Positions 1,403 to 19,788 of a stretch of 64,000 nt of DNA are shown piece by piece. A program made the position numbers and the translations under genes. Numbering within the stretch: position 1 is the stretch's first letter; each line of letters starts with the position of its first letter. This DNA comes from an uncultured bacterium. Its GTDB lineage: Bacteria; Patescibacteriota; Minisyncoccia; UBA6257; GWB1-50-10. The notes under the pieces were generated by a model. It did not search any database. It saw nothing but the letters and a program-made list of their open reading frames with translations, and was not told the DNA's origin. The stretch spans positions 281,903 through 345,902 of the forward strand of contig CAVYJB010000001.1 of NCBI GenBank assembly GCA_963768835.1. The letters run 5' to 3'.

Positions 1403-1483
1403 CCCCCGTCGTTCCTTGCAGAGCGCCCCGCCTCACGCTACGATGGCGGTAGTTTCCTTTCATCCATAAACGCGTGAGGCGTT

Positions 1484-2179
1484 ATGACATACCGAACGAT
1501 TCTTTTGGGAGCACTCATAGGGGCGTTGTTCCAACCCCCGTCGTCCGCGGAACCGAAACCGCATACGATCATTCGAAGGAGCTGTTTCGCCGTCGATATC
1601 AACTACCACAGCGTCATTAAATGGTTCGGAGCGAAGATTCTCAACCTGGAACCCGATTCTCTCGTTCTCACCGAAACCGCGATCATAATCGGCGACAGCG
1701 AAGCCGCATGGTCCATGGAGCTCGCCGAGGGGCCGGATGCCCCATGGCTGCGCGTCAACTCGGACACCAGCGCGTCGTCTTTCACCAACCTCCCCCGCGA
1801 CGGCCGCAAGCGATTCCAGCCGGATGCCATCGCGTTCGTGACGAGACTTCGTGGATACCTCGTATGCCAGGACTCCTGCCCTCCTTCGCTCCTCGGCGCC
1901 CTGCATATGGACGCCACTCCGACGCTTGTGGCCTTCATTCCCGGTGAACCGCTCGCGATCCCCGACTCGGAAAAGGCGGAGGTCCGCGGCGGAAAACCCC
2001 GGCACCTCCACGTGGAGACACAAAATGAGACGACCGTCGCCCCCTACATCTCGGGGGAGCTGCTCATCGAGCACTGGAACGGCAACGTAATCTATCCCTT
2101 CGCCAGCGCGCACCTTCACGCGGAAAACATCGACGTGAAACTCTATCTCAGGCGCTTCTCGATCGACTATTGCCCGTAA
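1484..2179 (+). CDS. hypothetical secreted protein (N-terminal signal-peptide-like segment)
   Basis: ATG start at 1484. N-terminus MTYRTILLGALIGALFQPPSSAEP is hydrophobic. The overlapping minus-strand ORF 1460..2206 is Arg-rich and looks like antisense. Confidence 0.5.
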   Translation: MTYRTILLGALIGALFQPPSSAEPKPHTIIRRSCFAVDINYHSVIKWFGAKILNLEPDSLVLTETAIIIGDSEAAWSMELAEGPDAPWLRVNSDTSASSFTNLPRDGRKRFQPDAIAFVTRLRGYLVCQDSCPPSLLGALHMDATPTLVAFIPGEPLAIPDSEKAEVRGGKPRHLHVETQNETTVAPYISGELLIEHWNGNVIYPFASAHLHAENIDVKLYLRRFSIDYCP

Positions 2180-2204
2180 CATAAGAGCGACCTCCCATAA
2201 CCAC

Positions 2205-2226
2205 AAACCCCGCTTCTGCGGGGTTT
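2205..2226. terminator. bidirectional rho-independent terminator between the convergent hypothetical gene and pheT
   Basis: aaaCCCCGCttctGCGGGGttt is a GC stem with A-run and T-run flanks, placed between stop codons at 2179 (+) and 2255 (-). Confidence 0.6.
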
Positions 2227-2254
2227 CTTATATCTCTCTCGCAACCGCGCGGGT

Positions 2255-4261
2255 TCACCGCACCTCCGCGTTGAACTGGCGATCAAGCATGGCCGTGATC
2301 TTCTCGACAAGACGGTCCACCTCGACAGTCGTGAGGGTGCGGTCCTCACGCTGGAAGACGATCCGGAGCGTCACCCCCACCTGGTCCTCCCACCGAGGGT
2401 CGGTGTACTCGTCAATGAGATCCACATCGCTGATGACCCGGAGGTCGAGCGCCTGGATCGCCTGCATCACGTCGCCGATATGCGCCGCCACCGGCACCAT
2501 GACGGAAAGGTCACGCATCACGGAGGGGTATTTTGGGAGGGGCTCATACTCCTCCTCTTCCTCCACGAGTTCGAGAAGCATATCAAGGTCGAACTCCGCG
2601 ACGCTCACCTTCCACCCGCGCGGCGTTACCCTCGGATGCCCCAGGTAACCGAACGAGGTGCCGCCGGATCGGTACTCGAGGAGCGTAGCGGGGTCCAGGA
2701 ACCCGCGGCCCGCACTCTCGAGCCGCCCCGTCTTCCCCTTGCCATTCGCCGGTGCCGTCGCGAACTCAACGAGCCCGAGCCCTTCCAGAAGCTCTTCCGC
2801 GATACCCTTGAGCTCGAAGAATGCTTCCGTTCCCTTCGAGGCCCGCACGATGCCGATTTTCGCGTGCTCGCCGATGCCTTTGGGGGTCTTGTTCATCACC
2901 TTTCCGACCTCGAAGAGCCGCAGGTCGTCGAGGAACTTGGCGTTGTGCGCGACGCTCCCTAAGAGATTCGGGACGAGGGAAGGGCGGAGATAGAAAAATT
3001 CCTCGCTCACGGGGTTCTCGAGTTCCACGCAGTCCCCCACGACTCCCGCGCCCACCGTTTTCGAAATGAAGGAGCTGTTGTAAACCTCGTCCATCCCGAG
3101 CGACGCGAGGATGCCCCGCGCTTTCTCCCGGAAAACGATCGTCTCGTCCTGCACGCCGGGGTTGAGATAGACATGGGGAGGGTGGGCCGCAAGCCTCCCG
3201 TATCCGTAGAGCCGCACGACCTCTTCCGCAAGGTCGGCGTGCGTCTCGATATCGATGCGCCACGGCGGCACTTCCCATGCATTGGGGCCTGCGCTCCGGA
3301 ACCCTAATCGCGCAAGGAGCGCGCCCGCTTCGGCCCGTCCGAGCGACGAACCAATAAGGCGGTTGAAATTGTTCACGTCGAACTTCAGCACGCGGCGCGG
3401 GGCGGGACGTGTCCGGGAATCGAACCACGCAATGGGCTTGGCGCCCGACTCCACGAGCAGACGGGCGGCGCGCATAAGCCCGAGACCCGCGAGGTGGGGC
3501 GCAAGGGTATGGGCGAAGCGAACCGACGCGTCGGTGACAAGACCTAGAGCGCGGGAGGTACGGTAGACGGAGATAGGATCGAAGTTTGCGGACTCCACAA
3601 TGATACGCTTCGTCGTCGGGCCAATCTCGGCGCTCTTCCCTCCTTTCACGCCCGCGATAGCCACCGGCTTCACTCGGTCCGCGATGACGAGTATTTCAGG
3701 CGAGAGCGCATACGTCGCCCCGTCGATCGTGACGATGGATTCCCCGGCCTTCGCGCGACGTACCACGAGGCGCCCTCCGTCGAGCTTGTCGGCGTCGAAC
3801 GCATGGAGGGGCTGGCCCATCTCAAGCATCGCATAGTTCATGACGTCCACCACGAAATTGATGGGCCGGAGCCCGCATTCCCGGAGCGCCGCCTGCATCC
3901 ACTTCGGGGAAGGCCGCGGAGAAACGCCTTCGAGCAGGAGGGCAGTGTATCGCGGGCAGAGTCGTTCCTCTTCCACCTTCACAATGAGGCCCGCGCCGGG
4001 ACGAGCAGATCGCGGAGGGGGTGTCAGGAGCGCGCGCTTCTCATCGAAGGACACAGGGCAACTCAAGATAGCCCCGATCTCACGCGCAAGTCCCAGATGT
4101 GAACCGGCGTCGGAATAGCGATTGGGGGGGAGCTTCACTTCAAGAGCGTCACCTGGGGCATTTTCTGCCTCGAAGGCGTGCAGGGTCAGAGCCTCAAGGA
4201 CCTGGGGTTTGCCCTTGAGCTTGGGAACGAAGGTTTTGAGGAGGGAGTAAGAAAATCTCAT
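2255..4261 (-). CDS. pheT: phenylalanine--tRNA ligase beta subunit (short form, 668 aa)
   Basis: Translation has PheT-like B3/4 and catalytic-like domains and the C-terminal FDX-like ending ...FNAEVR. It sits immediately downstream of pheS on the same strand. Confidence 0.85.
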   Translation of the reverse strand: MRFSYSLLKTFVPKLKGKPQVLEALTLHAFEAENAPGDALEVKLPPNRYSDAGSHLGLAREIGAILSCPVSFDEKRALLTPPPRSARPGAGLIVKVEEERLCPRYTALLLEGVSPRPSPKWMQAALRECGLRPINFVVDVMNYAMLEMGQPLHAFDADKLDGGRLVVRRAKAGESIVTIDGATYALSPEILVIADRVKPVAIAGVKGGKSAEIGPTTKRIIVESANFDPISVYRTSRALGLVTDASVRFAHTLAPHLAGLGLMRAARLLVESGAKPIAWFDSRTRPAPRRVLKFDVNNFNRLIGSSLGRAEAGALLARLGFRSAGPNAWEVPPWRIDIETHADLAEEVVRLYGYGRLAAHPPHVYLNPGVQDETIVFREKARGILASLGMDEVYNSSFISKTVGAGVVGDCVELENPVSEEFFYLRPSLVPNLLGSVAHNAKFLDDLRLFEVGKVMNKTPKGIGEHAKIGIVRASKGTEAFFELKGIAEELLEGLGLVEFATAPANGKGKTGRLESAGRGFLDPATLLEYRSGGTSFGYLGHPRVTPRGWKVSVAEFDLDMLLELVEEEEEYEPLPKYPSVMRDLSVMVPVAAHIGDVMQAIQALDLRVISDVDLIDEYTDPRWEDQVGVTLRIVFQREDRTLTTVEVDRLVEKITAMLDRQFNAEVR

Positions 4262-4265: not shown

Positions 4266-5258
4266 TTAGAACTGCCGCACGAACCGGACGTCGCCCGAGT
4301 AGAAAAGGCGGATATCGGGCACGTGGTATTTGATCATCGCCAGACGGTCCAGCCCCACGCCAAACGCAAACCCTTGCATCGTTTCGGGGTTGTAGCGCAC
4401 CGCGTCGAAAACGTTCCGGTGCACCATCCCCGCCCCCATGACCTCAAGCCACCGATCTCCCTTGAAGCGGATGTCCACTTCGACACCCGGCTCCACGAAC
4501 GGGAAGTAGCTCGGTCGGAAGCGGAACTCCACGTTGTTCCCCAAGAGGCGGCGGAGAAACTCCTCTACGACGAACTTCAGGTTGGAGAGGGACACGTCAG
4601 GACCGACCATCAGCCCTTCTACCTGGTAAAAGTTAATCTCATGGGAGGCGTCCGTCGGCTCGTACCGGAAAACGCGTCCGGGGACAATGATCTGAAATGG
4701 CGGGTTGTGGGAAAGCATGTACCGGATCTGCATGGGCGAGGTATGCGTGCGGAGAAGCAGCTTGGGATCCCCGCGCTTGGTCCCGTTCCCTTTGATCCAG
4801 AAAGTATCCCAGAGATCCCGCGCTGGATGGTCCGGCGGGATGTTTAACGCATCGAAGTTGTGATACTCCGTCTCGACTTCGGGCCCCTCGACGACGGAGA
4901 AGTTCATCGAGGCAAAGATGCGCCGCACTTCAGCGTCTATCCGCGTGAGAGGATGCAGGTGCCCACGCGCCGCGCGCTTCCCGGGTTTCGTGACATCGAA
5001 CTGCCGTTCGGTGGGAGCCTTCTCCAACGCTCCCCGACGAGCCTTAAGAGCTCCTTCAAGCTTCCCTTTGAGAGCGTTTGCCGCCGGACCGAGTTTTTTG
5101 CGCTCCGCGAGCGGCCGGTTTTTCAAGGACCGCAGGACCTCCGTGAGCTTCCCGTGTTCGCGGCCGAGATACTCCACGCGCACCGCTTCAAGCGCGGCGA
5201 CATCCTTCGCTTTCGCGATGCTCTCGAGAGCCTGATGTTCTAGTTTTCCCAGGTCCAT
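4266..5258 (-). CDS. pheS: phenylalanine--tRNA ligase alpha subunit
   Basis: Class II aaRS motifs are present (FRYEPTDASHEINFYQVEG, GAGMVHRNV). Start is assigned to MDLGKLEH with GGAGGTG 5 nt upstream (cat at 5256-5258); the listed ORF extends further upstream without support. Confidence 0.85.
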   Translation of the reverse strand: MDLGKLEHQALESIAKAKDVAALEAVRVEYLGREHGKLTEVLRSLKNRPLAERKKLGPAANALKGKLEGALKARRGALEKAPTERQFDVTKPGKRAARGHLHPLTRIDAEVRRIFASMNFSVVEGPEVETEYHNFDALNIPPDHPARDLWDTFWIKGNGTKRGDPKLLLRTHTSPMQIRYMLSHNPPFQIIVPGRVFRYEPTDASHEINFYQVEGLMVGPDVSLSNLKFVVEEFLRRLLGNNVEFRFRPSYFPFVEPGVEVDIRFKGDRWLEVMGAGMVHRNVFDAVRYNPETMQGFAFGVGLDRLAMIKYHVPDIRLFYSGDVRFVRQF

Positions 5259-5337
5259 AGCACCTCCATTATATATCCGACATCCGCGATGTGGAAAGCA
5301 TAATTGAATTTTAGGGGCGGACGGTGTAGGATGGCTC

Positions 5338-5412
5338 CGCGGGGAGGAGTAACGGTTGCTCGTCAGGCTCATAACCTGAAGGTAGTGGGTTCAATTCCCG
5401 CCCCCGCAACCA
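5338..5412 (+). tRNA. tRNA-Met (CAT), initiator-like with a C1:A72 mismatch; 3' CCA encoded
   Basis: Cloverleaf CGCGGGG/AG/GAGT-AACGGTT-GCTC/G/TCAGG-CTCATAA-CCTGA/AGGTA/GTGGG-TTCAATT-CCCGC/CCCCGCA/A/CCA. Unpaired 1:72 is the bacterial initiator hallmark, but the anticodon stem lacks the three consecutive GC pairs. Confidence 0.8.
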
Positions 5413-5525
5413 TGGAAAGCGGCTTCGCCACCTCATGCCAAGCCATCCAGCCTGTTATCGTCTAACGTACGGCTGCATAGAAAGCGGCTTGCGCACGATT
5501 TCAACTTCGTGTCTAATAAAACCAC

Positions 5526-5598
5526 GCCGGCGTAGCTCAGCGGTTAGAGCGAGGCATTCATAACGCCTAGGTCGGAGGTTCGACTCCTCCCGTCGGCA
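5526..5598 (+). tRNA. tRNA with CAT anticodon (elongator Met or lysidine-modified Ile2)
   Basis: GCCGGCG acceptor pairs with CGTCGGC. D-arm is GCTC-AGCGGTTA-GAGC. Anticodon loop TTCATAA; T-arm GGAGG-TTCGACT-CCTCC; discriminator A. Confidence 0.75.
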
Positions 5599-5645
5599 CT
5601 GTTCGTACACGTTCTTTCACACACACCAACCATAAGGAGGTTGCT

Positions 5646-6206
5646 ATGAAAACATCGGATACGGCTGTGCAATCAGTAACGGTCATACCGCAGTCATCTA
5701 CAGAAGCCGCTGCGCATCTTATAAAAATCGCTGCGGAGCGACGCGCCCTCGACGAGGTCAACGGGCGCCTCAACCGGAAGGTGGAGGAGCTCAAAGCGGA
5801 TGCAATGACGGAAGCGAAACCACACCAGGAAGAACTCATCCGATTGATTTACGGCCTCTACGAGTACGCAAAGAAAAACCGCGAAATCCTCACCGAGGGC
5901 GGGAAAACGAAAACCGTCGAGCTGCCAACGGGCAGCTTCGGGTGGCGCTTCAACCCCCCATCTGTCAGCGTCCGCAAAGTAAAAGAGGTTATTAAATACC
6001 TGAGGAGCAAACGCCTGACACGCTTCATACGAGTCAAGGAAGAGGTCGACAAGAAGGCGCTTGGCAAGTCGCCCAAGACAGCCCTCACCATCAAGGGAGT
6101 GACGATCAAACAGGAGGAGGTCTTCGTTGTAACACCGAACGAGCTCAGGGCGGAAATCCCCATGCGGATCGTGGCTCTGGAAAAACTCGAGAAGAAACGG
6201 GCATAG
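5646..6206 (+). CDS. phage Mu Gam-like DNA-end-binding (host-nuclease inhibitor) family protein
   Basis: AGGAGG sits 6 nt upstream of ATG. The coiled-coil N-terminus and the block EILTEGGKTKTVELPTGSFGWRFNPPSVSVRKVKEVIKYLRSKRLTRFIRVKEEVDKKAL align, from memory, with Mu Gam (ELTNGGKVKTANLVTGDVSWRVRPPSVSIRGMDAVMETLERLGLQRFIRTKQEINKEAI). Confidence 0.7.
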   Translation: MKTSDTAVQSVTVIPQSSTEAAAHLIKIAAERRALDEVNGRLNRKVEELKADAMTEAKPHQEELIRLIYGLYEYAKKNREILTEGGKTKTVELPTGSFGWRFNPPSVSVRKVKEVIKYLRSKRLTRFIRVKEEVDKKALGKSPKTALTIKGVTIKQEEVFVVTPNELRAEIPMRIVALEKLEKKRA

Positions 6207-6239
6207 CTACCATCGGAGATTCCTATCGAGAATCTCTAT

Positions 6240-6265
6240 AATCCCCTTCGGGGGATTTTTGTTTA
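6240..6265 (+). terminator. rho-independent terminator after the Gam-like gene
   Basis: ATCCCCttcgGGGGAT followed by tttttgttt. Confidence 0.55.
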
Positions 6266-6747
6266 TATCGACAATCGCCCGAGCCTTGGATACCATTATG
6301 GGAATGACGGAAAGCCAACAGAAACAAATTATCTCGCTTGCCCGCTCGCTTATCGGGAAGCCCTACAAGTACGGCGCGACGCCGGAGGAGGCCCCAGATG
6401 TATTTGATTGCTCGTCCTTCATACAGTACATCTTCAAACAGATCGGGGTTCAGATCCCCCGCGTGAGCACCTTCCAGGCGGCGGACCCGCAGGGAACTGA
6501 AATCATTCCTTCGGAGGACCTGTCGAACCTGCAGCCGGGTGATCCTATCTTCACCCGCGGCACCATCGGGAGATACAACGACGAGTTATTCGGGGGAGAA
6601 AGATAGACATTGGCCACGTCGCGATGATCTCTGGAAACGGGAATGTGTTGCACTCGCGGCATCGATTGGGGGGCGTTACGGAACAAAAAATAGCCGAGCT
6701 CACCTCGGAACCGAACTATAAGATCGTGCTGGTGAAACGTTTCTAAT
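6259..6747 (+). pseudogene. NlpC/P60 (C40) cell-wall peptidase, interrupted by a frameshift in a G5 run near 6592-6596
   Basis: N-part (frame 1) contains GKPYKYGATPEEAPDVFDCSSFIQYIF with the catalytic Cys context. The C-part IDIGHVAMISGNGNVLHSRH (catalytic His context) continues in another frame from ~6600 to the TAA at 6745-6747. Inserting one G in cgggggag restores a single 162-aa ORF. The listed start at 6259 is a TTG; the ATG at 6298 is an alternative. Confidence 0.6.
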
Positions 6748-7282
6748 GCAGCGCGGTGTCCCCCACTACTCACAGTTTCTCGACGTCAAAAATAAACTTT
6801 GGCAGCCGCTCTCCTGCGGAATCGTGTCACTGAAAATAGTGCTCGATTACTGGCACCAGTCCGGGCGCCTGCGACGCGTGCCCCCGTCTATACCGGCACT
6901 GAATCGTCTCGGGCACGAGATGGAGGCTTACGTATGGAACCGTGGTTGGTCGCACCGTGGTTTAGTACTCCTTGCGCGCCGTTTCGGGCTCCACGGTGAG
7001 AATTTAGACTGGGCTTCGCTTCCCTCTCATGCCGCGTTCCGAAAACTCCTTCCGCTCCTCCGCCGCGGGCCAGTCATCGCATCGATCTATCGTTACCCTA
7101 GAGAGAAACGGGGCGGGCATCTTGTCGTGGTGACCGAGGTCGAAGCGGGGAAGGTGTATCTTCTTGACCCGATCGCAAAGACCCGCAGTCGTATCCCCCG
7201 CATTATTACACGCAAGGCGTTCCTCGAAGCATGGAAACGCCGCATTGTTGTGGTGCGGCCACGTTTGCGAAAACGACGGTAG
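6746..7282 (+). CDS. peptidase C39-like (papain-like) domain protein
   Basis: QPLSCGIVSLKIVLDYWHQSG (Cys motif) and GHLVVVTEVEAGKVYLLDP (His motif) fit the C39-like fold. The ATG overlaps the TAA of the upstream NlpC/P60 reading frame (taATGcag). Confidence 0.55.
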   Translation: MQRGVPHYSQFLDVKNKLWQPLSCGIVSLKIVLDYWHQSGRLRRVPPSIPALNRLGHEMEAYVWNRGWSHRGLVLLARRFGLHGENLDWASLPSHAAFRKLLPLLRRGPVIASIYRYPREKRGGHLVVVTEVEAGKVYLLDPIAKTRSRIPRIITRKAFLEAWKRRIVVVRPRLRKRR

Positions 7283-7304
7283 GTTGATACACTAAAAGTC
7301 GCGT

Positions 7305-7380
7305 GCGGGCGTAGCTCAGCCCGGTTTAGAGCGTCCCCCTGTCACGGGGAAGGCCGTGGGTTCAAATCCCATCGCCCGCG
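7305..7380 (+). tRNA. tRNA-Asp (GTC)
   Basis: GCGGGCG/TA/GCTC-AGCCCGGTTTA-GAGC/G/TCCCC-CTGTCAC-GGGGA/AGGCC/GTGGG-TTCAAAT-CCCAT/CGCCCGC/G. Confidence 0.85.
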
Positions 7381-7388
7381 CAAACCCA

Positions 7389-7419
7389 GAAACCCTGATG
7401 TCGTCAGGGTTTCTTTTTA
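7389..7419 (+). terminator. rho-independent terminator downstream of tRNA-Asp
   Basis: AACCCTGAtgtcgTCAGGGTT followed by tcttttt; the palindromic stem is perfect. Confidence 0.65.
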
Positions 7420-7524
7420 CACCCTTGTGAGACGTTGGAACTGGTCGTTATTAAAGATTCCTACTCTCCGGAAGAAAAAGACCCCGTTCATATCGAACGG
7501 GGTCAACATCAAGAACCAAAGAGG

Positions 7525-8208
7525 TCAGCTGCGGGAGAACACGCAAGAGCCATCGTCCCACCTGTCGTCATCCAGGCCGATCGCATTCAGGTCCCACACG
7601 CGGAAACCAGAGCCCCAGCGCACGCGCACCGCAACCACGCGCGAATCTTCCAGTCGAATATAGAAGATGTTGGCGTAGCCGTTCGTGAGGAGGATTCCAT
7701 CCTCACCGTTCGGTTGCCTAGTGAGCAGATCACGAATAATCACAGCGAACTCTCCTGCGGTAAAGGGTCTCGGTTGCCCGAGCTCGTTCAGGATGGCCGA
7801 GTCATACATATACTCGGTGAGCTGGGTCTTCATAAGATTGCCCTGAAACGCCTCAATGGTTTCAGGTATTTCCTTGAGCACCCAGTCTGCGAAGCTGTCC
7901 CCGAAGTAGAGCTTCACGGGACCGGTCTTCATGAAGAAGGAGTGTTTGGGAAAAGGCGCGTTGGCCACCCTGAACGCGGCGATGAGCTGCCTCAGGGATT
8001 TCAGAGCGAGGCCCTTCGCTCCATTCGTTCCGGCTACGATGAGTCCGGCAATCATTCCCGCCATCTGGGGAATCAGGTTATTCTTCGACTTCAATGCGTC
8101 GAAGATTTGCTCCTCCGTCACATTCTGCTTCTTCAGTTCCTTGAAGAGCGCGGAGAAGAAGTCCACCACGAACATCAGGGCTTGCATCACCAGCGATTTG
8201 CGTGCCAT
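7525..8208 (-). CDS. hypothetical protein (228 aa from MARKSLV...), cargo gene bracketed by the duplicated tRNA-Asp 3' flank
   Basis: ATG (cat 8206-8208) is preceded by GGAGGTG. No motif was recognised by eye. The overlapping plus-strand ORF 7435..8445 is rejected as antisense. Confidence 0.5.
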   Translation of the reverse strand: MARKSLVMQALMFVVDFFSALFKELKKQNVTEEQIFDALKSKNNLIPQMAGMIAGLIVAGTNGAKGLALKSLRQLIAAFRVANAPFPKHSFFMKTGPVKLYFGDSFADWVLKEIPETIEAFQGNLMKTQLTEYMYDSAILNELGQPRPFTAGEFAVIIRDLLTRQPNGEDGILLTNGYANIFYIRLEDSRVVAVRVRWGSGFRVWDLNAIGLDDDRWDDGSCVFSRS

Positions 8209-8291
8209 ATGGCACCTCCAGTATTGTGGTTTTCCATCACTCCGTCGTTTGGTCGGGAGCATCGGAAAAACCATTGGGAAAGAACGACATC

Positions 8292-8320
8292 GTTATACTA
8301 TGACAATTTGTACATGTCAA
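8292..8320 (-). promoter_or_regulatory. sigma70-like promoter (TTGACA-17 nt-TATAAC) reading toward the 7525..8208 gene
   Basis: Minus strand reads TTGACAtgtacaaattgtcatagTATAAC. The -35 is consensus and the spacing is 17 nt. The -10 ends about 84 nt upstream of the ATG. Confidence 0.45.
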
Positions 8321-8350
8321 GCATATCCTCACTACTACCTCTAGTGTACC

Positions 8351-8395
8351 AGCTTCGCCACAAAAATCGGCTCCTTCTGCTCCGCAGTAGAGAGC
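8351..8395 (+). repeat. partial copy (5' half) of the ~75-bp intergenic direct-repeat family
   Basis: CCAGCTTCGCCACAAAAATCGGCTCCTTCTGCTCCGCAG shares CTTCGCCACAAAAA...CCTTCTGC with the three full copies. Confidence 0.5.
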
Positions 8396-8454
8396 ACCTA
8401 AGAATTCAGTTTGAAAGGAGCCTCGGCGCAATTAGGACGATTTAGATATATATC

Positions 8455-8527
8455 CAACTTCGCCACAAAAACAGACCCCCCGTACCCCCGTATCGCAGTT
8501 CCAATAGCGTCCACGAGGGCGCGCAAA
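8455..8527 (+). repeat. ~75-bp intergenic direct repeat, copy B, fused to a second copy of the tRNA-Asp 3' flank/terminator (8513..8590)
   Basis: CAACTTCGCCACAAAAACAGACCCCCCGTACCCCCGTATCGCAGTTCCAATAGCGTCCACGAGGGCGCGCAAACC. The GTTCCAATAGCGTCCACGAGGGCGCGCA core is identical in copies C and D. Confidence 0.7.
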
Positions 8528-8532
8528 CCTAG

Positions 8533-8561
8533 AAACCCTGATACCATCGGGGTTTCTTTTT
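8533..8561 (+). terminator. degenerate second copy of the tRNA-Asp-flank terminator
   Basis: AGAAACCCTGATACCATCGGGGTTTCTTTTTGCACCC versus AGAAACCCTGATGTCGTCAGGGTTTCTTTTTACACCC at 7384..7420. The stem is weakened by substitutions. Confidence 0.45.
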
Positions 8562-8688
8562 GCACCCCTACGGGATGTTGGAACTACTCAAGATTTTTAT
8601 AAAAATCGGCGGGCCTCACTCTCGTTATAGGGAGTTGACGCTCAAAGAGGTCGGAGTCTTATCCGACTTAAGCTGGGTTATCCTAAAA

Positions 8689-9447
8689 TTATTTTATACC
8701 CACTATTCCTGTAACATCCAACGGCCGTTCCATAAAACCATTAATCAGTCTTCTCTTGCAATGTTCCGCAAGCGCCTTGCGTGCTTGATCCTTTTTATCT
8801 TCTGAAACTAGGTTCCACAGACTCACTGACTGAAAATAGGCAATCGCGTGGTCGAGCGTAAAATGCTCGCTAACTTCTTTTTTCTCCTTGGTGACTTTTT
8901 GGAACCCACCCTCCTGAAGAATATTCTCCGGGTCATAATGCCTCTTTGCATCGGGAATTTCGCATGAAATAAATGGTTTTAATATCATACGGTATTCCTT
9001 TTTGAAATTGCCGGAATCGTTCTTGTTCACTACGAAAAATATTCCACCGGGCTTCAATACCCTCTTTATCTCTTTCACTGATTCCCTGTCACAGAACCAA
9101 TGAAATGCACTAAAGGCAGTAACCGCATCAAACGTTTCGTTGGAAAATGGCAGATGATTTGCAGGAGCGATGCAGTACGTTGCCTCACTTTCGTTTTTTT
9201 CTTCTGCAATCCGAATCATCTCCGGATCATTGTCGGCCCCGAAAATCTTTGCACTAGGCCGTAACAATTGCCGGGTCGAAATCCCCGTCCCACATCCAAG
9301 GTCTAACACCTTCGGCTGTTCACAGACGACTAATCGCCAAAAGCAATCAATAGTCTCTTGAGGAAATCCTTGTCGGGCTTCATCGTATTGCTTCCCTAGA
9401 TTTCCAAACTTTCCGTACCCTGGTTTTGCCTTGGTCACTTGTCGCAC
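8689..9447 (-). CDS. class I SAM-dependent methyltransferase
   Basis: VLDLGCGTGIST motif I and LKPGGIFFV motif. GTG start at 9447 is preceded on the coding strand by TGgTAGAAT, then 6 nt, then GTG. Local GC is visibly lower than the window average. Confidence 0.7.
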   Translation of the reverse strand: MRQVTKAKPGYGKFGNLGKQYDEARQGFPQETIDCFWRLVVCEQPKVLDLGCGTGISTRQLLRPSAKIFGADNDPEMIRIAEEKNESEATYCIAPANHLPFSNETFDAVTAFSAFHWFCDRESVKEIKRVLKPGGIFFVVNKNDSGNFKKEYRMILKPFISCEIPDAKRHYDPENILQEGGFQKVTKEKKEVSEHFTLDHAIAYFQSVSLWNLVSEDKKDQARKALAEHCKRRLINGFMERPLDVTGIVGIK

Positions 9448-9573
9448 AGTTATATTCTACCACGCGGCTCCCTTCAGATATTGACAAAATATAAATATAA
9501 TGTATTATGTGCGCAGAAACAGAGCCTATTAAGGGCTTTAACAATTCATTTAGACAACTGAGAGGGGTATTGT

Positions 9574-10325
9574 ATGGAACGTCTAGCACGGTGGCAATCT
9601 CATATCACGAGTGTTCGAAGGGATAGGCTCGTGACCTACAGCGTCAATCAGGAGAAGATAATAAGAACGTTCTCGTATGAGGCGATGGTCTACTTCTTGT
9701 TGTTTGGAAAACAACCGTCGCGCGTCACGGCAAGGATGCTCCGAGCCGTCATTCTATCCCACTGCAGCCATGGTATTACCGGACAAAGCACACTTGCGGT
9801 TCGCATGGCGACCGATTGTCGTTCGCCGTTTCTCAACGCCGCGCTAGGAGGGTTCTTGTTGGTTCAGGCACCTTTCATCAAGGAGGACTCGAGATGGCGA
9901 TGAAAGAGCTCCAATCTGCGCTAGCAGCTCCGAGTATTGAGAAATATATTGCCGACAAGCTCTCAAGGAAGCAAATAGTCTACGGTTACGGGCATCGTTT
10001 TCACAAACATGATCCGCGCGCCCGTTGCTTAATGCAATTGTGTCGCCGGCATTCTTTCCTGGGTCCTCACGTAAGGGCGGCAATGAAGATTGACCAAATT
10101 CTGGGAAAGAGGAAGCAGATTCACATGAACATCGAAGCAGCGTGTGGATCTATTCTCCTGGATATAGGATTCCCGTCGGAGATCGCCGCGTTAATCATAC
10201 TCATCGGTCGAGGTCCAATGTTCGCCGCAGCGTACATGGAGCGACTTGCATCCTCACGAAAAACCTTCCAGAAGGTAAAGGTGTTTGATCTTATACCAAC
10301 ACGAAGAGGGCGACGACATGCCTAG
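9574..10325 (+). pseudogene. citrate synthase/citryl-CoA lyase-like gene split by a frameshift near 9850-9856
   Basis: Frame A (9574..9903) ends ...SPFLNAALGGFLLVQAP. Frame B (9816..10325) carries GTFHQGGLEMAMKEL and the GYGHRFHKHDPRA block resembling the citrate-synthase signature G[FY]GH.VY...DPR. One missing base next to the GGG at 9850-9852 would join them into about 250 aa. Confidence 0.5.
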
Positions 10326-11031
10326 ATCATTGGTGTATGCGGTAATCCCAGCGCGTGGCGGATCAAAAGGACTCCGTGGGAAGAATCTCAGGTTGCTCCA
10401 CGGCCAACCGCTCATCAGTTACATCATTCGTGCCGCGCTTCAAGCACAAACAATCGACAGGGTATTCGTCTCAACAGAGAACGATGAAATAGCGAGGGTT
10501 GCCATGCGGTACGGAGCGAAGGTCATTCGACATCCCAAGTCGCTTTCGACCTCAACCACGTCAACGTTCGGCGTCATCCGGCGTGCGGCAAAAATATTCA
10601 AAAAGAAGTGGCGCCGCCCCGACGTATTGGTGACCATGCGGGCGACTTCCCCACTTTGTGAGCCAACTGACGTCGATAATGCCGTAAGGCTGCTCTTCAG
10701 AAAAAATGCTGATTCGGTAGTAAGTGTCGCAAAGTCTGACGTTCACCCTCTCCGGATGCTCAGGAAGAATCGAAAGAAGGAGCTGGAGCATTTCGACAAG
10801 CGGAGTAGCGAACGGAATTTTCCCCATCGCCGTCAGTCGTTCGGTGACGTGTACATCAGGAATGGTGCAATCTACGCCACGAGGACTGAGGTTATCGAAA
10901 GGGGCAGCCTGTGGGGGAAACATTGTGTTCCTTATGTGATGCCGAAAGAGCGTTCTGTGAACATCAACGACTGGATTGACTTCTTGCTAGCGGAATCGCT
11001 TCTAAAGCAACGCGTAAAGCCGCTATCGTGA
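10318..11031 (+). CDS. acylneuraminate/nonulosonate cytidylyltransferase family (CMP-sugar synthetase, NeuA/PseF-like)
   Basis: AVIPARGGSKGLRGKNLRLLHGQPLISYII...IDRVFVSTEND is the characteristic N-terminal CTP-transferase motif. ATG at 10318. Confidence 0.7.
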   Translation: MPRSLVYAVIPARGGSKGLRGKNLRLLHGQPLISYIIRAALQAQTIDRVFVSTENDEIARVAMRYGAKVIRHPKSLSTSTTSTFGVIRRAAKIFKKKWRRPDVLVTMRATSPLCEPTDVDNAVRLLFRKNADSVVSVAKSDVHPLRMLRKNRKKELEHFDKRSSERNFPHRRQSFGDVYIRNGAIYATRTEVIERGSLWGKHCVPYVMPKERSVNINDWIDFLLAESLLKQRVKPLS

Positions 11032-11052
11032 TACGATAGCGGCTTTTTATTC
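11016..11052 (+). terminator. rho-independent terminator at the end of the cytidylyltransferase gene
   Basis: AAAGCCGCTATCGtgatacGATAGCGGCTTTttatt; the stop codon lies in the loop. Confidence 0.65.
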
Positions 11053-11119
11053 CAGAATATAGTGAGACTGAAACAGATTTTATTATTCTCCAGTCGCAGT
11101 GTCAGGTACGGTACCTAAA

Positions 11120-11195
11120 CCCAGCCTCGCCACGAAAACAGAGTCCTTCTGCCTTCGTATCGCAGTTCCAATAGCGTCCACGAGAGCGCGCAAAT
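11120..11195 (+). repeat. ~75-bp intergenic direct repeat, copy C
   Basis: CCCAGCCTCGCCACGAAAACAGAGTCCTTCTGCCTTCGTATCGCAGTTCCAATAGCGTCCACGAGAGCGCGCAAATG. Confidence 0.7.
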
Positions 11196-11298
11196 GTTTT
11201 TTGCCGCCTCCTTTGTGGGGCGGCATGAAGCATCTATCGGTCTTGCGTGTTACAAATATCCGGACGCCAGCGTGGTAGATTAAGCGCCGACCACTCGG

Positions 11299-12750
11299 TT
11301 ACGCCACCCTTGATACTGTAAGCTCTAACGCCCTCTCTCGCAGGAGCGCCGCCACAACCCTTGCCCGTATTCCCATGGGACACACGAGGAGCACCTCCCG
11401 ATTTTTCCATTGTTTTGAAAACTTCGAAAGATTACCAGTAATAGCATTCGAATCCATACGCTTTGACCCGGGGAGACGGAAGTGGATAAATTCTCCATGC
11501 GGCCGGACATCGATAATGGATACTCCTTGCCGCAGGGCAACATCATGGCCCTCCTTGATCTGCGCCCACGCTTTTTGGGGAGGTACCGGGTACGCCATTT
11601 CATATGCGTCGCGAGGATCCACATCGAAGCCTAAGAAGGTGGTCCCGGTCTTCCGCTTCGGAGGTCTTATCTCCCCGGGCTTGTTCATCAGTAGTTCCTC
11701 GTGTTCAATGCCTGGGAAATGGGAGGCATCGAGATACTCAAAGTACTCCTCGATATACGGGAACGGACCGTCGGGGCAGATGAAAACCGCGACAATTTCA
11801 CCGTTCTTGCCCCGCAAATCATTAAGCCCTCCTTCGCTCTTCCGCTTTGAGAAAAACTGCAGCAACCCTTGAAGCGCGAGGCCGGAACTTGGCCCGGCGA
11901 CAACGCCCGCCCGGCACAATTCCAAGCTCTTTTCGTACGATTCTTTCGTACCGACCTCTTCGATATGATCGGTCGCCTGTCGCCAGTCGAAAGCGATTTC
12001 TCGGAGAAGATTCGGGGTTCTCACCCCCGGCACGGGATTATTGGGGAGCCGCGCAACACCGACTCTCACGATCTTCGTTGTTCGTTTCTTGAGATACCCT
12101 CCGGCGCCCACCATCGTTCCCGTCGTACCGAGACCGGAGCAGAATACGCGGATCTTCCCTTCCGTCTGTTCCCATATCTGCGGCCCCGTCCATCGTTCGT
12201 GCGCACCCGGGTTCGCTTCGTTGTCATACTGCCCCGGGTTGAACCATCCCCTACGCCTGCCGATTCGCTTCGCCCTGTAGATGCCGCTCTCCTTATCCGC
12301 AGGATCCGGACAGATCGGCTCCTTGTTCACTACGATCTCCGTCCCAAAGAAGCGGAGTAGTTGGAGCTTGCCCCACGTTACCTCGTGCGACACGATGGCC
12401 CTTGTTTTCGGGATCCCGAACAGCCTCCCGATCACCGCCAAGGAGAAAACGGTGTTTCCAGAGGAGTTTTCGATCAGCGACCGTATACCGCCCAATCCCT
12501 TGGTGCCCCCTCGTTCGAGAAGCATGTTATAGGCCGGAAGAGATTTCACGTTCGCGAGCGGCAGGAAATTCATAAGCTTCGCAAAGACGCGAACTCCGTC
12601 TTCGGCAAATGGGTTGAGATGCGACGGAATCTCCACCAACGGGAGGGGCGGGCTGCGGTCGGGATTCAGGAAATCCTTCACAGCCTCCGGACCGGCGAAG
12701 ACGTTAAACGGTTTTTCGGTTTTGGGAGCGTGTTTTGACATAGTTCTCAA
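11299..12750 (-). CDS. PLP-dependent cysteine synthase family protein fused to a C-terminal rhodanese domain
   Basis: Tryptophan-synthase-beta-fold motifs are present (ENSSGNTVFSLAVIG; CSGLGTTGTMVGAGGYLKK). The C-terminal ~100 aa look like rhodanese (VSIIDVRPHGEFIHFRLPGSKRMD...VLLVCPMGIRARVVAALL with active-site Cys). The listed start overlaps the upstream gene; the true start is probably the MSKHAPK Met at ~12741. Confidence 0.7.
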   Translation of the reverse strand: MRTMSKHAPKTEKPFNVFAGPEAVKDFLNPDRSPPLPLVEIPSHLNPFAEDGVRVFAKLMNFLPLANVKSLPAYNMLLERGGTKGLGGIRSLIENSSGNTVFSLAVIGRLFGIPKTRAIVSHEVTWGKLQLLRFFGTEIVVNKEPICPDPADKESGIYRAKRIGRRRGWFNPGQYDNEANPGAHERWTGPQIWEQTEGKIRVFCSGLGTTGTMVGAGGYLKKRTTKIVRVGVARLPNNPVPGVRTPNLLREIAFDWRQATDHIEEVGTKESYEKSLELCRAGVVAGPSSGLALQGLLQFFSKRKSEGGLNDLRGKNGEIVAVFICPDGPFPYIEEYFEYLDASHFPGIEHEELLMNKPGEIRPPKRKTGTTFLGFDVDPRDAYEMAYPVPPQKAWAQIKEGHDVALRQGVSIIDVRPHGEFIHFRLPGSKRMDSNAITGNLSKFSKQWKNREVLLVCPMGIRARVVAALLRERALELTVSRVA

Positions 12751-13696
12751 AATCGAACGTTTCGTCTATCTGCTTCGTGAGGTCGCCGTACCGTTCGGCG
12801 ATAAACCCCTGCGCAACGTAGCGACGGTGTAGCTCGTAAAGCTTCCGAAGCCGCTTTTTGTAGTCCGGAGTGATTGAGAAAAGCCTTCTTTCGATGTGCG
12901 CCAACAGGGTTTTATTTTCTCCTTCCAACAAATCGACGTTCAGCGCACCGCCTTCCTGGTCCTTCCTACGTAGATATGCAGATTCTTTGAAAAGCCCGAG
13001 GAGTTTTTCCGCCGGGATGGCTTTCTTTATGAATTCCGCGTCAGTTTGGGACCGCACCTTGTTGCCAACCACAAAGAGTGAATCGTAGACCCCCGCTTCT
13101 AGGGCAAGCTTCCGGTATTGCTCGAATACCTCGAGGCCCCGCTTCGTCGGCTCAACGGTGAGCACGAGCATCTCGAATTGCGCGTGGAGCGTGTTTGCAA
13201 AGGCATCAATCCCAGCGACCATATCGGTCACAACGACGCCAGAAGCATCCGCAAGGTGAGAGAGGATGTTCTCAAGGATTGCGAGATTGTTGTGATAACA
13301 GCTGGCGCCGATCTCCTCGCTATCGTAGGTTCCGACGACCAGCAACCGCAGTTTCTCATCGCCCGAGCCAAATCGGGAAAGGACGGGGTCCTGAGGATCG
13401 TCCAAATATATGAGATTCGATTCGGCGGTAGGCGGGGTCGTTTTGCGGAATTGCGCAAGGCCTTTAATGCGTGTATTCCCGCCTTTTAAGTGCGTCTTGA
13501 TGACCCTTGCCGCATCGGGATGCGAGATATGCCTCTCAATCGGCAGCTCGGCTTCAAACCCCAAGAGCCCCCCGAGGTGCATATTCAAATCCGCGTCAAT
13601 GGCGAGCACCGGATGTTTCCTATTGATATATTCGGCAAAGAGAGCGGCCAGCGTTGTTTTCCCCGAACCTCCCTTGCCTACAAAAGCAATCCTCAT
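12704..13696 (-). CDS. CooC/MinD/ParA-family P-loop ATPase
   Basis: MRIAFVGKGGSGKTTLAALFA deviant Walker A; DADLNMHLGG; VVTDMVAGIDAF. Start is taken at MRIAF (cat 13694-13696); an upstream Met at 13732 is also possible. Confidence 0.65.
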   Translation of the reverse strand: MRIAFVGKGGSGKTTLAALFAEYINRKHPVLAIDADLNMHLGGLLGFEAELPIERHISHPDAARVIKTHLKGGNTRIKGLAQFRKTTPPTAESNLIYLDDPQDPVLSRFGSGDEKLRLLVVGTYDSEEIGASCYHNNLAILENILSHLADASGVVVTDMVAGIDAFANTLHAQFEMLVLTVEPTKRGLEVFEQYRKLALEAGVYDSLFVVGNKVRSQTDAEFIKKAIPAEKLLGLFKESAYLRRKDQEGGALNVDLLEGENKTLLAHIERRLFSITPDYKKRLRKLYELHRRYVAQGFIAERYGDLTKQIDETFDFENYVKTRSQNRKTV

Positions 13697-13737
13697 GCCC
13701 CTAACGATACAGACCACACTCTTCGAATACAAGTTAT

Positions 13738-13765
13738 TTGCAAGTAGTTTGCATTTAGATATAAT
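13738..13765 (+). promoter_or_regulatory. promoter-like TTGCAA-16 nt-TATAAT ending 6 nt before the fur-family start codon (leaderless-type); direct TTTGCA repeats overlap it
   Basis: ttatTTGCAAgtagTTTGCAtttagaTATAATgggaaaATG. Confidence 0.45.
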
Positions 13766-13771
13766 GGGAAA

Positions 13772-14236
13772 ATGCCAAAGAAAGATTTTTTCCGCGACAT
13801 ATTGAGAAAAAGCGGCTATAAAGCAACACCTTCCCGGCTCGCGATTCTTGGCGTCTTTAAGGAAACGAGAAATCCGATGAGCGCCCAGGAGATTATCGAC
13901 GCGCTTCCCTCGGATACCGACCAGGCCACCGTCTATCGGACGCTCAAGCTATTGAATGAGAAAGGAGTCATCAAGCAAATCGACCTGCGGCACAACCATG
14001 CCCATTACGAACTTGCCGACCTGAAGGAGCACCATCACTTGGTGTGCGTGCGCTGCGGTAGGATCGAGGACGTGCACCACTGCGGCGCCCTGGCTGTTCA
14101 GGACGCAGTTCTCAAGAGCTCGAGGCACTTTGCGGAAATCAGCAGCCATTCGCTTGAGTTCTATGGCATTTGCACTGCCTGCGTCAAAAAAAGCGAGGCT
14201 GCGCATGTCGCTCCCCATCGCAGTGCACCGCTCTAG
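13772..14236 (+). CDS. Fur-family metalloregulator (Fur/Zur/Nur/PerR-type)
   Basis: Winged-helix N-terminus (RLAILGVF...MSAQEI) and the HHHLVCVRCGRIEDV...C metal-site motifs. Confidence 0.8.
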   Translation: MPKKDFFRDILRKSGYKATPSRLAILGVFKETRNPMSAQEIIDALPSDTDQATVYRTLKLLNEKGVIKQIDLRHNHAHYELADLKEHHHLVCVRCGRIEDVHHCGALAVQDAVLKSSRHFAEISSHSLEFYGICTACVKKSEAAHVAPHRSAPL

Positions 14237-14246
14237 TAGACCACCC

Positions 14247-15431
14247 ATGAAGCATTTCATTCGACACCTGAATCGTCGTCGGAGAATGTACCTTGAGATA
14301 GCTCTTGCGGTCATCGTCATTGTCGGGTGTTCCCTCTTGTATCGCGCGGAGGAAACGAACATTGATGCCTATCTCGCGACGACATTCCCAAGCCCTGCGA
14401 TCAGTCTCGGTGAGGTTATCTCGGTCAGCCCAGCGACAGGTACGATAGGTGCCTATCCCACCTCCCACGTCTCGGTATTATTGCTGACGGGCATGGATAC
14501 AGGAACGACAACCCAGATTACCAGCCAGTCAGGGGATAGTTCGGTCAAGAATAGCTATCTCCAAGTGGTCCCGGGCGAGAAGGTCCTCCTCGCGAAAGAC
14601 GACATGAGTCGTTCTGGCGGAGAGTCCTACTACATCACCGACCGATTCCGATTACCGGCGATCCTTTTTATCATCCTTCTGTTTGTTGCGGTGGCGGTAC
14701 TGTTCGGGCGACTACGGGGATTCACCTCTATTGTGGGATTTGGAATAAGCGTCGGAGTGCTTGGATGGTACGTGGTGCCCCAAATTCTGGAGGGCACCGA
14801 TCCCCTCACCGCTTGTCTTATCGGAGCAGCGGGGATTGCACTCGTATCGCTCTACCTTGCACACGGGTTCAACACGCGAACGACTCTCGCGCTCTGTGGG
14901 ACATTAATTGCACTGGCCGTTTCTGCACTCCTCGCCATTCTTTTCGTCTCAGCTTCGCGGCTCGTCGGTCTGGCGACCGAAGAGTCGTTCGCGGTGGCAA
15001 TCGGGAACGGCACCAGTTTAAGCCTCAGGGGCATTCTTCTCGGAGGCATCATTATTGGGACTCTTGGCGTATTGGACGACGTGACGATCGGACAGTCCGC
15101 CACGGTCGCAGAACTCAATGATGCCAACCCAACACTGGGCTTCAGGGAGTTGTATCGGCGGGGAATGTCGGTGGGTCGAGAGCACATCGCCTCACTCATC
15201 AACACGTTGTTCCTCGCGTACGCGGGTGTTGCCCTGCCGATCATCCTCTATATTGCAGCTTTCCAGAGCAAAATCCCGCTATGGCTCACGGTGAACGGTG
15301 AACCAATCGCCGAGGAGATTGTCCGCACCATGGTGGGGAGCATCGGCATCATCTTTGCTGTTCCTATCACCACGGTTCTCGCGGCTTACTACTACGGCAA
15401 ACACATACATAGAAAGAAAGAGGGTGTATAA
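14247..15431 (+). CDS. YibE/F-family integral membrane protein
   Basis: Multi-pass hydrophobic profile with the YibE/F-like pattern LGVLDDVTIGQSATVAEL...REHIASLINTLFLAYAG. Start is taken at MKHFIRH (ATG 14247), just after the fur stop. Confidence 0.65.
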   Translation: MKHFIRHLNRRRRMYLEIALAVIVIVGCSLLYRAEETNIDAYLATTFPSPAISLGEVISVSPATGTIGAYPTSHVSVLLLTGMDTGTTTQITSQSGDSSVKNSYLQVVPGEKVLLAKDDMSRSGGESYYITDRFRLPAILFIILLFVAVAVLFGRLRGFTSIVGFGISVGVLGWYVVPQILEGTDPLTACLIGAAGIALVSLYLAHGFNTRTTLALCGTLIALAVSALLAILFVSASRLVGLATEESFAVAIGNGTSLSLRGILLGGIIIGTLGVLDDVTIGQSATVAELNDANPTLGFRELYRRGMSVGREHIASLINTLFLAYAGVALPIILYIAAFQSKIPLWLTVNGEPIAEEIVRTMVGSIGIIFAVPITTVLAAYYYGKHIHRKKEGV

Positions 15432-15464
15432 TAAAGAAAAGGTCGTGGGAGTATTCTCATAACC

Positions 15465-15605
15465 ATGCCAAAGAAAGCGAAGAAGAAGGTGCGGAAAACG
15501 GGACCTAAGCATATGTACCTCTGCGCGTGCGGTCGCGGCACATGTCGATGCCGCCCCTGCAAGTGCAAGTGCAAGAAGGGGGTCTGCGTGTGCGTTTGTA
15601 AGTGA
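15465..15605 (+). CDS. unannotated 46-aa lysine- and cysteine-rich protein (13 Cys), metallothionein-like
   Basis: ATG 15465 to TGA 15603-15605. Translation is MPKKAKKKVRKTGPKHMYLCACGRGTCRCRPCKCKCKKGVCVCVCK. GTGGGAG lies 13 nt upstream. A TATAAT at 15427-15432 overlaps the yibE/F stop. A strong terminator follows immediately. Confidence 0.45.
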   Translation: MPKKAKKKVRKTGPKHMYLCACGRGTCRCRPCKCKCKKGVCVCVCK

Positions 15606-15613
15606 AAACCACG

Positions 15614-15641
15614 GCCGCCAGGGAGATCCTGGCGGTTTTTG
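15614..15641. terminator. rho-independent terminator (bidirectional, between convergent genes)
   Basis: GCCGCCAGGgagatCCTGGCGGttttt. Confidence 0.65.
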
Positions 15642-15671
15642 GTTACAAGAGGGATGTCCGAATCAGCACGC

Positions 15672-19699: not shown

Positions 19700-19788
19700 G
19701 GTTGGGTTAAAAAAGGAGACCTTTTGATTGACTGGGTATATTATACATCGCCACGAATGGGATTCCATACGTTTAAAGTGCATAATCC

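Follow-up and report, generated by a model that had tools for sequence, protein, structure and literature searches.

A gene that lies between two copies of the sequence following a tRNA gene raises the question whether it was inserted there and, if so, in what manner. We address this question for a locus in a 64,000-nucleotide stretch of DNA from an uncultured bacterium of the Patescibacteriota (GenBank assembly GCA_963768835.1, contig CAVYJB010000001.1, positions 281,903 to 345,902), here called the window, in which the 3' flank of a tRNA-Asp gene recurs about 1.1 kb downstream. Genomes of the Patescibacteria or candidate phyla radiation (CPR) are tiny, and gene exchange among them is little known. 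A preliminary description of the locus, made from the sequence alone, saw an element inserted at a tRNA 3' end and reduced to one orphan gene. We find that the bracketed gene belongs to an array, of which it forms the first unit. At least three segments make up this array (7.4-8.5, 8.5-11.2 and 11.2-16.3 kb of the window), and each of them ends, on the side away from the tRNA, in a conserved stretch of about 28 nt that we call box X. Box X recurs behind tRNA-Asp genes in other CPR genomes, and the array is apparently part of a wider, previously undescribed tRNA-Asp-anchored system. As far as sequence comparison can tell, an account in which a trans-acting enzyme inserts integrase-less cassettes site-specifically and in tandem at the CGCGCA end of tRNA-Asp is somewhat likelier than all other explanations together.

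The direct repeat at the tRNA-Asp gene

The junction consists of the following features, in which X' denotes an inverted, degenerate counterpart of box X.

7305-7381, plus strand: tRNA-Asp (GTC) gene (ARAGORN; Rfam tRNA, 68.2 bits), whose last bases CGCGC(A) form the left edge of the repeat
7377-7442, plus strand: direct repeat copy 1, consisting of CGCGCAAACC, the terminator hairpin and an X' stretch
7388-7414, plus strand: tRNA-Asp terminator hairpin, a 12-bp stem followed by a T run (-17.3 kcal/mol, z = -5.2)
7415-7442, plus strand: X' of copy 1 (TTTTTACACCCTTGTGAGACGTTGGAACT), an inverted degenerate stretch resembling box X or a tRNA T arm, at the left end of the cargo
8520-8585, plus strand: direct repeat copy 2, with its hairpin at 8531-8557 and its X' at 8558-8585

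The duplication of the tRNA-Asp 3' flank is real, with boundaries a few bases from those first given. In a repeat scan, 7377-7442 and 8520-8585 aligned without gaps as a 66-nt direct repeat with 55/66 identical positions (83%), the runner-up within 5000-11000 being only 27 nt long and 70% identical. The hairpin of the second copy keeps its 12-bp stem (-16.2 kcal/mol). A self-comparison demonstrates that the similarity is not limited to the terminator: it extends for 28 nt past the hairpin (23/29 identical) and stops exactly after GTTGGAACT. An independent Logan assembly (5665 nt, L001) is 100% identical over the region, so the repeat structure is not an assembly artefact; identical sequence is present in the Logan run ERR11594402.

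The share of the tRNA-Asp gene in this repeat is its last 5 nt (CGCGC), which are followed by AAACC and the hairpin. Since the repeat holds just these 5 nt and no tRNA 3' half, it is not a classical duplication of an attachment (att) site. The attL/attR geometry first proposed is thus borne out to the extent that this is an insertion-type region with direct repeats; it does not extend to more than 5 nt of tRNA, to an integrase or to an element standing on its own. That the event is old is one possible reading of the 17% divergence between the copies, which may instead be the homologous arms of two related cassettes.

Box X and the array in the window

A repeat of 75 bp had been described as replacing the tRNA body in the second copy. 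It exists, and belongs to a 79-nt family with several copies on the plus strand (8449-8527; 11116-11194, 82%; 16178-16256, 68%), which divides the array as follows.

8349-8383, plus strand: partial copy A', the left part of the 79-nt repeat without box X (weak nhmmer match)
8449-8527, plus strand: copy A, ending in box X GTTCCAATAGCGTCCACGAGGGCGCGCA (8498-8525); right end of cassette A
8586-11194: segment B, with a methyltransferase gene (minus strand), split citrate-synthase-like open reading frames (ORFs) and a cytidylyltransferase gene, then copy B
11116-11194, plus strand: copy B with box X, end of segment B
11195-16256: segment C, with genes for a PLP-enzyme/rhodanese, a CbiA/ParA-like ATPase, YibE/F and a small membrane protein, then copy C
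16178-16256, plus strand: copy C with box X, end of segment C

Box X is the last part of the 79-nt repeat and reads GTTCCAATAGCGTCCACGAG-GNCGCGCA, with GTTCCAATAGCGTCCACGAG-G(N)CGCGCA as its invariant part. Both box X and the tRNA-Asp gene end in the hexamer CGCGCA, and it is exactly there that the 66-nt repeat begins. A hairpin follows every copy of the 79-nt repeat, and an AT-rich box (CTATGAAAAC / TATAAAAAT) is found about 40 nt upstream of many copies of box X. The three copies of the window all follow tRNA-Asp at distances of up to 9 kb and share the orientation of the tRNA; the other nhmmer matches to the X profile in the window are a weak partial one at 8342-8381, which is A', and one close to noise at 62378-62393 (E = 8). 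The copies also fall within a region of distinct composition, with a GC content of 44-57% over 5.5-16.5 kb vs 60-65% in the flanks.

Segments B and C hold 3-5 genes each, in both orientations, and in segment C a Fur-like ORF was identified by eye in addition to the genes listed. The citrate-synthase-like gene of segment B (9574-10325) consists of two overlapping ORFs of 109 aa and 169 aa, both matching PF00285, and is likely a frameshifted pseudogene.

The comparison with a related genome that the preliminary description called for can be made at a distance only. In the syntenic locus L021 the order RecG-PheT-PheS-two tRNA-Met genes-NlpC/P60-C39 peptidase-tRNA-Asp is followed after 0.8 kb by gatA-gatC-ligA. 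In support of an insertion, the distance from tRNA-Asp to gatA is 14 kb in the window vs 0.8 kb in L021, and box X is absent from L021. The best homologs of the C39 neighbour are at most 65% identical and lie on short contigs.

Box X in other CPR genomes

We retrieved box X elsewhere by exact match to its 20-nt core in metagenome contigs and species-representative genomes. The core occurs in 6 metagenome contigs and in 7 genomes of the species-representative set, which carry the labels Patescibacteria and Saccharibacteria and, for one bin, Atribacterota. Three of the loci (L009, L011 and L019) are the same sequence and were counted once, leaving 11 independent loci besides the window. A tRNA-Asp(GTC) gene lies 1.0-4.4 kb upstream of box X on the same strand in 8/9 loci that can be judged: the window, L007, L010, L013, L015, L017, L018 and L019, the negative one being L016; L008, L012 and L014 are too short upstream of box X to judge. 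By a rough estimate, not a computed one, such a link would be expected by chance at less than 1% per genome.

The cargo between tRNA-Asp and box X is unrelated from genome to genome in the eight genomes. It includes the target gene and reverse transcriptase (RT) of a diversity-generating retroelement (DGR) in one locus and a DGR variable-protein paralog in the window.

Window: DGR variable-protein paralog
L019 (same sequence as L009 and L011): DGR target and RT
L007, 5031-8466: four genes, whose products are a 518-aa protein of unknown function, one JAB-like and one ThiF/E1-like protein, and a small one of 109 aa
L010: sensor kinase (CheR/CheB-like by eye) and response regulator
L018: NYN nuclease
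L015: pilin-like protein
L017: NUDIX protein, then a peptidoglycan-binding/fn3 protein
L013: MauE-like protein, then DUF924

The four-gene cargo of L007 resembles ubiquitin-like conjugation conflict systems.

Arrays of box X are found in four loci, with 3 copies in the window and 2-3 each in L008 (two), L013 and L017; a profile search found extra diverged copies within L017 and L013. Exact-core scans of the viral contigs of IMG/VR did not find box X, and our literature search returned nothing relevant on its sequence, on tRNA-Asp islands of CPR or on attC sites in Patescibacteria. In L008, a DGR reverse-transcriptase gene (530-1770) is interrupted by an insertion sequence (IS) with a 382-aa transposase and the inverted repeats GCTCATAAT...GTTACCGTAGTTT. 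These are unrelated to box X, which we could thus reject as an IS end.

Junctions and a proposed mode of insertion

Within a genome, the junctions share their right flank from (C)GCGC(A) on, and the left edge of the shared sequence is always at the hexamer. The span of the shared right flank varies: it is 66 nt long in the window, about 50 nt between two X junctions of L017 and about 40 nt between the tRNA junction and the X junction of L013. The junction hairpins differ between genomes. At some junctions the hairpin is followed by X', an inverted copy of the left arm, and in the window box X and direct repeat copy 2 together form a 90-nt imperfect palindrome (8497-8585; -49.5 kcal/mol, z = -6.2). 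Copy C has its inverted partner upstream, at 16094-16106. In 3/9 genomes, the tRNA end of that genome recurs as an inverted copy. In L015, the 190 nt that follow tRNA-Asp, ahead of the X-bounded pilin-like cassette, contain two perfect copies of the 3' end of that gene: an inverted 20-nt copy at 6741-6760 (palindrome z = -8.5) and a direct 24-nt copy of the classical type at 6855-6878.

A left edge fixed at CGCGCA, a right edge that varies, tRNA-Asp arrays in one orientation and unrelated cargo fit the site-specific insertion of circular cassettes with tandem accretion. Under such a mechanism the 66-nt repeat would mark the two junctions of a 1.14-kb cassette lying directly after tRNA-Asp, the tRNA-proximal unit of the array, and CGCGCA would be the crossover point of a site-specific recombinase. 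A circular cassette (X-CGCGCA-terminator-X') would be joined to the tRNA-Asp 3' end, and new cassettes would enter at the tRNA and displace older ones outward. Rather than a target-site duplication, the two copies of terminator plus X' would then represent homologous right-hand arms that belong to two related cassettes. The predicted junction of the circular cassette joins 8527 to 7382 (…CCACGAGGGCGCGCAAACCCAGAAACCCTGATGTC…), and the predicted empty site joins the tRNA-Asp 3' end to copy 2 and its flank (…ATCCCATCGCCCGCGCAAACCTAGAAACCCTGATACC…).

Several observations count against this proposal. Neither an empty site nor a circular junction nor a close relative (>65% protein identity) was retrieved, so that insertion is deduced from distant comparisons. 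A tblastn search of the 64-kb window with one Xer-type tyrosine recombinase and one large serine recombinase as queries gave no match. Box X resembles the tRNA-Asp 3' end only in GGTTC and CGCGCA and has no dyad symmetry, and is therefore unlike both a classical tRNA-derived att core and a dif site. The partner X' is found at some junctions only, being significant for 5/16 copies of box X (3 downstream, 2 upstream); for this reason we also rejected X-hairpin-X' as a universal attC-like hairpin. Segments B and C carry ordinary-looking metabolic and regulatory genes. Finally, the near-invariance of box X is partly a selection effect, since its copies were retrieved by an exact 20-mer.

Search for a recombinase, and decayed tRNA islands as a possible alternative

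The absence of an integrase can be explained in two ways: either the enzyme acts in trans, or each element has lost its own. Pfam searches found no recombinase among the window genes of 5.6-20.4 kb, nor in the scanned cargo ORFs of roughly 14 cassettes from 9 loci; the scan covered part of the cargo ORFs, several of which gave no family, and such searches have limited sensitivity. That no scanned cargo ORF is a recombinase argues for a trans-acting enzyme rather than for repeated loss. Such an enzyme may be a host Xer-type tyrosine recombinase, the sole candidate we saw: in L014, the stop codon of an Xer-type recombinase gene lies 19 nt from box X. L014 is also the only locus with two AATAGCGTCC arms that face each other, 14 nt apart.

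The best of the alternatives, which we nevertheless consider unlikely, is that these are classical tRNA islands decayed by deletion to integrase-less remnants of the cis-mobilizable element (CIME) type, stacked by tandem accretion, with box X as a conserved P-arm. Their geometry would be the same as that of trans-catalysed cassettes. The direct 24-nt duplicate of tRNA-Asp in L015 implies that classical tRNA-Asp integration does occur in the group, and in L010 a large serine recombinase gene adjoins tRNA-Asp, on the side away from the cargo. Yet independent loss of the recombinase from all of the cassettes is improbable, and the cassettes are very small (1-5 kb). The 5 nt of tRNA in the repeat and the lack of box X from viral contigs of IMG/VR speak against such islands as well.

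The nature of box X

Box X might have a function of its own, unrelated to insertion, and we considered several candidates. Six-frame translations are short and non-conserved with early stops, which excludes a coding sequence; no CRISPR repeat or tandem array was found. A terminus (dif) site was rejected for the lack of dyad symmetry and of a global GC-skew switch. A remnant of the tRNA-Asp 3' half was rejected too: alignments against 8 tRNA-Asp and 13 other tRNA ends are not significant, and ARAGORN finds nothing. As for a known or structured RNA, the three window copies and 12 loci gave no Rfam match to box X at gathering thresholds or at E <= 10 (only tRNAs and chance matches), and RNAalifold on 15 copies yields 4 trivial pairs and no covariation.

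These results bear on a second alternative, in which box X and the terminator are a small RNA gene or cis-regulatory module (a promoter-like TATRAAAAC, about 65 nt and a terminator) conserved near tRNA-Asp, and the 66-nt repeat arose by local duplication of terminator modules or by their gene conversion, without mobile DNA. A hairpin of the Rho-independent type does follow most copies of box X even where no plus-strand gene precedes it, the AT-rich box recurs upstream, and the core is near-invariant among distant lineages. We judge this alternative decidedly improbable: the copies lack conserved structure, covariation and an Rfam match, the genes downstream of box X are mutually unrelated, and it leaves the variable cargo, the arrays, the shared CGCGCA and the absence of box X from the syntenic L021 unexplained.

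A dispersed palindromic repeat (of the miniature inverted-repeat transposable element, repetitive extragenic palindromic or Correia-like kind) that landed by the tRNA terminator, next to a gene that was always there, would account for the 90-nt palindrome, for X' as an inverted X-like stretch and for the inverted partner of copy C, but is very improbable, since just three copies of box X occur in 64 kb, clustered downstream of tRNA-Asp in one orientation, an inverted partner is missing from most copies, the association with tRNA-Asp in 8/9 loci stays unexplained, no transposase is associated with the copies and the inverted repeats of the L008 IS are unrelated.

Comparison with known systems

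The array at tRNA-Asp shares features with several known systems. Like tRNA islands and CIMEs, it sits as an insertion at the 3' end of a tRNA gene and has a direct repeat at each junction, atypical GC content and accessory cargo, and like CIMEs it has tandem units without their own recombinase and att-like sites in one orientation. Integrase-less CIMEs formed by tandem accretion are reportedly found among the ICESt1-related elements of Streptococcus thermophilus, and Williams is said to have distinguished tRNA sublocation classes in 2002. Unlike the sites of tRNA islands, which take in 15-50 nt of the tRNA 3' half, the repeat of the array shares CGCGC(A) only. Moreover, we found no integrase-bearing parent, the units are 1-5 kb long, and box X is near-invariant over distant CPR.

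Integrons and clusters of attC sites lacking integron-integrases (CALINs) resemble the array in their small recombinase-less cassettes, each of which ends in a repeated site of one orientation. Some of the X junctions are 90-120-nt imperfect palindromes with an inner stem-loop, and sites within a genome are more similar than sites of different genomes, again as in integrons. The array differs in that it has no IntI/attI/Pc platform and begins at tRNA-Asp, with no tyrosine recombinase detected in the window. The RYYYAAC and GTTRRRY boxes of attC sites are absent; the array has GTTCCAA and TTGGAAC in the opposite arrangement, and its palindrome is inconsistent and absent at most junctions. Integron cassettes are promoterless, mostly with a single ORF, and co-oriented, whereas the cassettes studied here have their own promoters, either orientation and often several genes, the cargo gene of the window being antisense to the array.

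Elements that use the host XerC/D recombinases, such as integrative mobile elements exploiting Xer (IMEX) and the pdif modules of Acinetobacter, are likewise integrase-less, with short conserved bounding sites and tandem arrays, and the abutment of box X on the 3' end of an Xer-type recombinase gene in L014 is a further likeness. Box X, however, lacks the 11-6-11 dyad of dif sites (two inverted arms of about 11 bp and a spacer of 6-8 bp), its anchor is the end of a tRNA gene and not the dif site of the terminus, and a role of Xer here is a candidate role only.

Taken further, these likenesses would suggest that box X, with an optional hairpin and X', is the recombination site of an undescribed integron-like cassette platform of Patescibacteria, in which a host recombinase (Xer-type or other) stacks recombinase-less cassettes of 1-5 kb at the CGCGCA end of tRNA-Asp. 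This more general interpretation is possible, if on balance doubtful.

The cargo gene of the window

The first cassette of the array holds the following features.

7525-8208, minus strand: cargo gene (227 aa, Shine-Dalgarno sequence GGAGGTG), a DGR variable-protein paralog of a CPR family
8292-8320, minus strand: promoter-like TTGACA-17-TATAAC of the cargo gene (TGTCAA at 8315-8320 and GTTATA at 8292-8297 on the plus strand)
7528-7641, minus strand: variable repeat (VR) at the 3' end of the cargo gene, matching template repeat (TR) 2 of the DGR cassette L002 with adenine-biased differences
7480-7504, minus strand: GC-rich hairpin GACCCCGTTC-N5-GAACGGGGTC, 20 nt past the cargo stop codon (-20 kcal/mol, z = -5.9)

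Direct reading confirms two points of the preliminary description: the gene at 7525-8208 is the sole credible gene of the interval, and its promoter-like site is present on the minus strand. A consensus scanner did not list this site, because the scanner accepts only a -10 box that ends in T. Nor is the gene an orphan. It has no Pfam or PADLOC match, and the suggestion of a protein like an abortive-infection (Abi) factor or toxin gives way to membership of a CPR-restricted family of 54 proteins, one of which is annotated Candidatus Jorgensenbacteria. Homologs in this family adjoin bAvd and RVT_1 genes, which is the arrangement of a DGR, and the paralog P0007 (56% identity) is the target gene of L002. 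Judged by its sequence, the cargo gene is a paralog of DGR variable proteins and carries a variable repeat.

The pattern of differences is characteristic. Between the VR of the window and TR2 of L002, 18/29 adenine sites and 7/85 other sites are changed (Fisher p = 1.8e-8); between TR2 and its own VR the figures are 22/29 and 0/85. The template repeat of L002 encodes VVAVNVNWNSNDREWNLNANDLDDNRWNDGNCVLSRS and contains AAC codons, as DGR templates typically do. After the TR homology, the cargo gene and the L002 target have CGCAGCTGACCTCT and the GC hairpin in common, unlike the TR end. The hairpin, near-identical in the L002 target, is of the DGR target-recognition type and doubles as a terminator. 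The AlphaFold model of the cargo protein is confident (pLDDT 86.5), Foldseek found no PDB match to it at E < 0.8, and there is a weak signal of a fold like that of C-type lectins or formylglycine-generating enzyme (FGE).

No RT or Avd gene is present in the 64-kb window. Like the proteins of the window, P0007 is recorded on a single contig of 353,519 bp, as P0001 and P0055 each are, and the DGR of L002 (RT, Avd and TR) appears to lie on the window's own 353-kb contig, outside the window. With RT and Avd outside the window and a paralog in L002, the cargo gene is a remote target at best. The seven changes at non-adenine sites, 4/7 of them near the 3' end, mean that it was not recently rewritten from TR2 of L002. 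Its sequence suggests that it is either served by another TR or no longer active.

With known DGR variable proteins of remote targets the cargo gene shares a VR at the C-terminus, adenine-specific differences from an AAC-rich TR, a conserved sequence and GC hairpin after the VR, and a location away from the RT; the weak C-type-lectin/FGE-like fold signal may be a further likeness. Variable proteins of remote targets reportedly include Mtd of the Bordetella phage and TvpA of Treponema, and DGRs of CPR and DPANN are said to be the subject of Paul et al. 2017. The difference from such targets lies in the seven non-adenine changes from the sole TR at hand, by which the cargo gene is not currently templated by that TR.

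The L002 locus is itself unusual, with two template-repeat/Avd units in 1-3980. TR1 lies at about 400-520 and avd at 540-833; TR2 at 2036-2149 is accompanied by a second avd-like ORF, and a 5' RT fragment (857-1033) is found besides the full RT (2487-3524). This arrangement looks like the outcome of duplication or rearrangement of a DGR, or else of chimeric assembly.

Other features of the window and of L021

Upstream of the array, a phage Mu Gam-like gene (5646-6206; PF07352, E = 6.5e-34) begins 47 nt past the second tRNA-Met gene. L021 has no such gene, its tRNA-Met being directly followed by NlpC/P60, and the Gam-like gene is a further case of a single gene inserted at the 3' end of a tRNA gene, here with no flanking repeat seen. 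The NlpC/P60 gene of the window (6259-6721) has an in-frame stop, encodes 115 aa vs 147-148 aa in L021 and L022, and is probably a pseudogene. In L021, 16 nt from the 3' end of tRNA-Met (CCCCCACCCCTGCTAC; 7320-7335 and 7466-7481) recur in direct orientation 130 nt downstream of that tRNA and form a small att-like bracket, and the bracketed DNA holds GAAGAGTATTCGAG, a near-match to a motif upstream of the L002 TRs.

Beyond the array, a surface-protein-like gene for 1146 aa (16343-19783, minus strand) contains a perfect (100%) tandem duplication of 261 bp at 16854-17360, an exact copy of an 87-aa module. Coding repeats of 285-297 nt at 38000-41150 (also at 17400-18250), with 11 copies of 60-80% identity, are typical of a giant Ig-like repeat protein.

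Implications for gene exchange in CPR bacteria

Box X spans lineages from the Jorgensenbacteria-like source genome of the window to Saccharibacteria. If the insertion of cassettes at tRNA-Asp is confirmed, its conserved 28-nt boundary would be a concrete and searchable signature of a hot spot of gene capture in CPR. If the enzyme is a host Xer-type recombinase, the principle of IMEX and dif modules would be extended to a tRNA-anchored site. An integron-like platform, if it is true, would shuffle DGR modules, DGR targets, genes of conflict systems and surface proteins between very distant CPR lineages. Confirmation would also mean that DGR modules and spare DGR targets travel as cassettes, which bears on how these episymbionts diversify their surface proteins.

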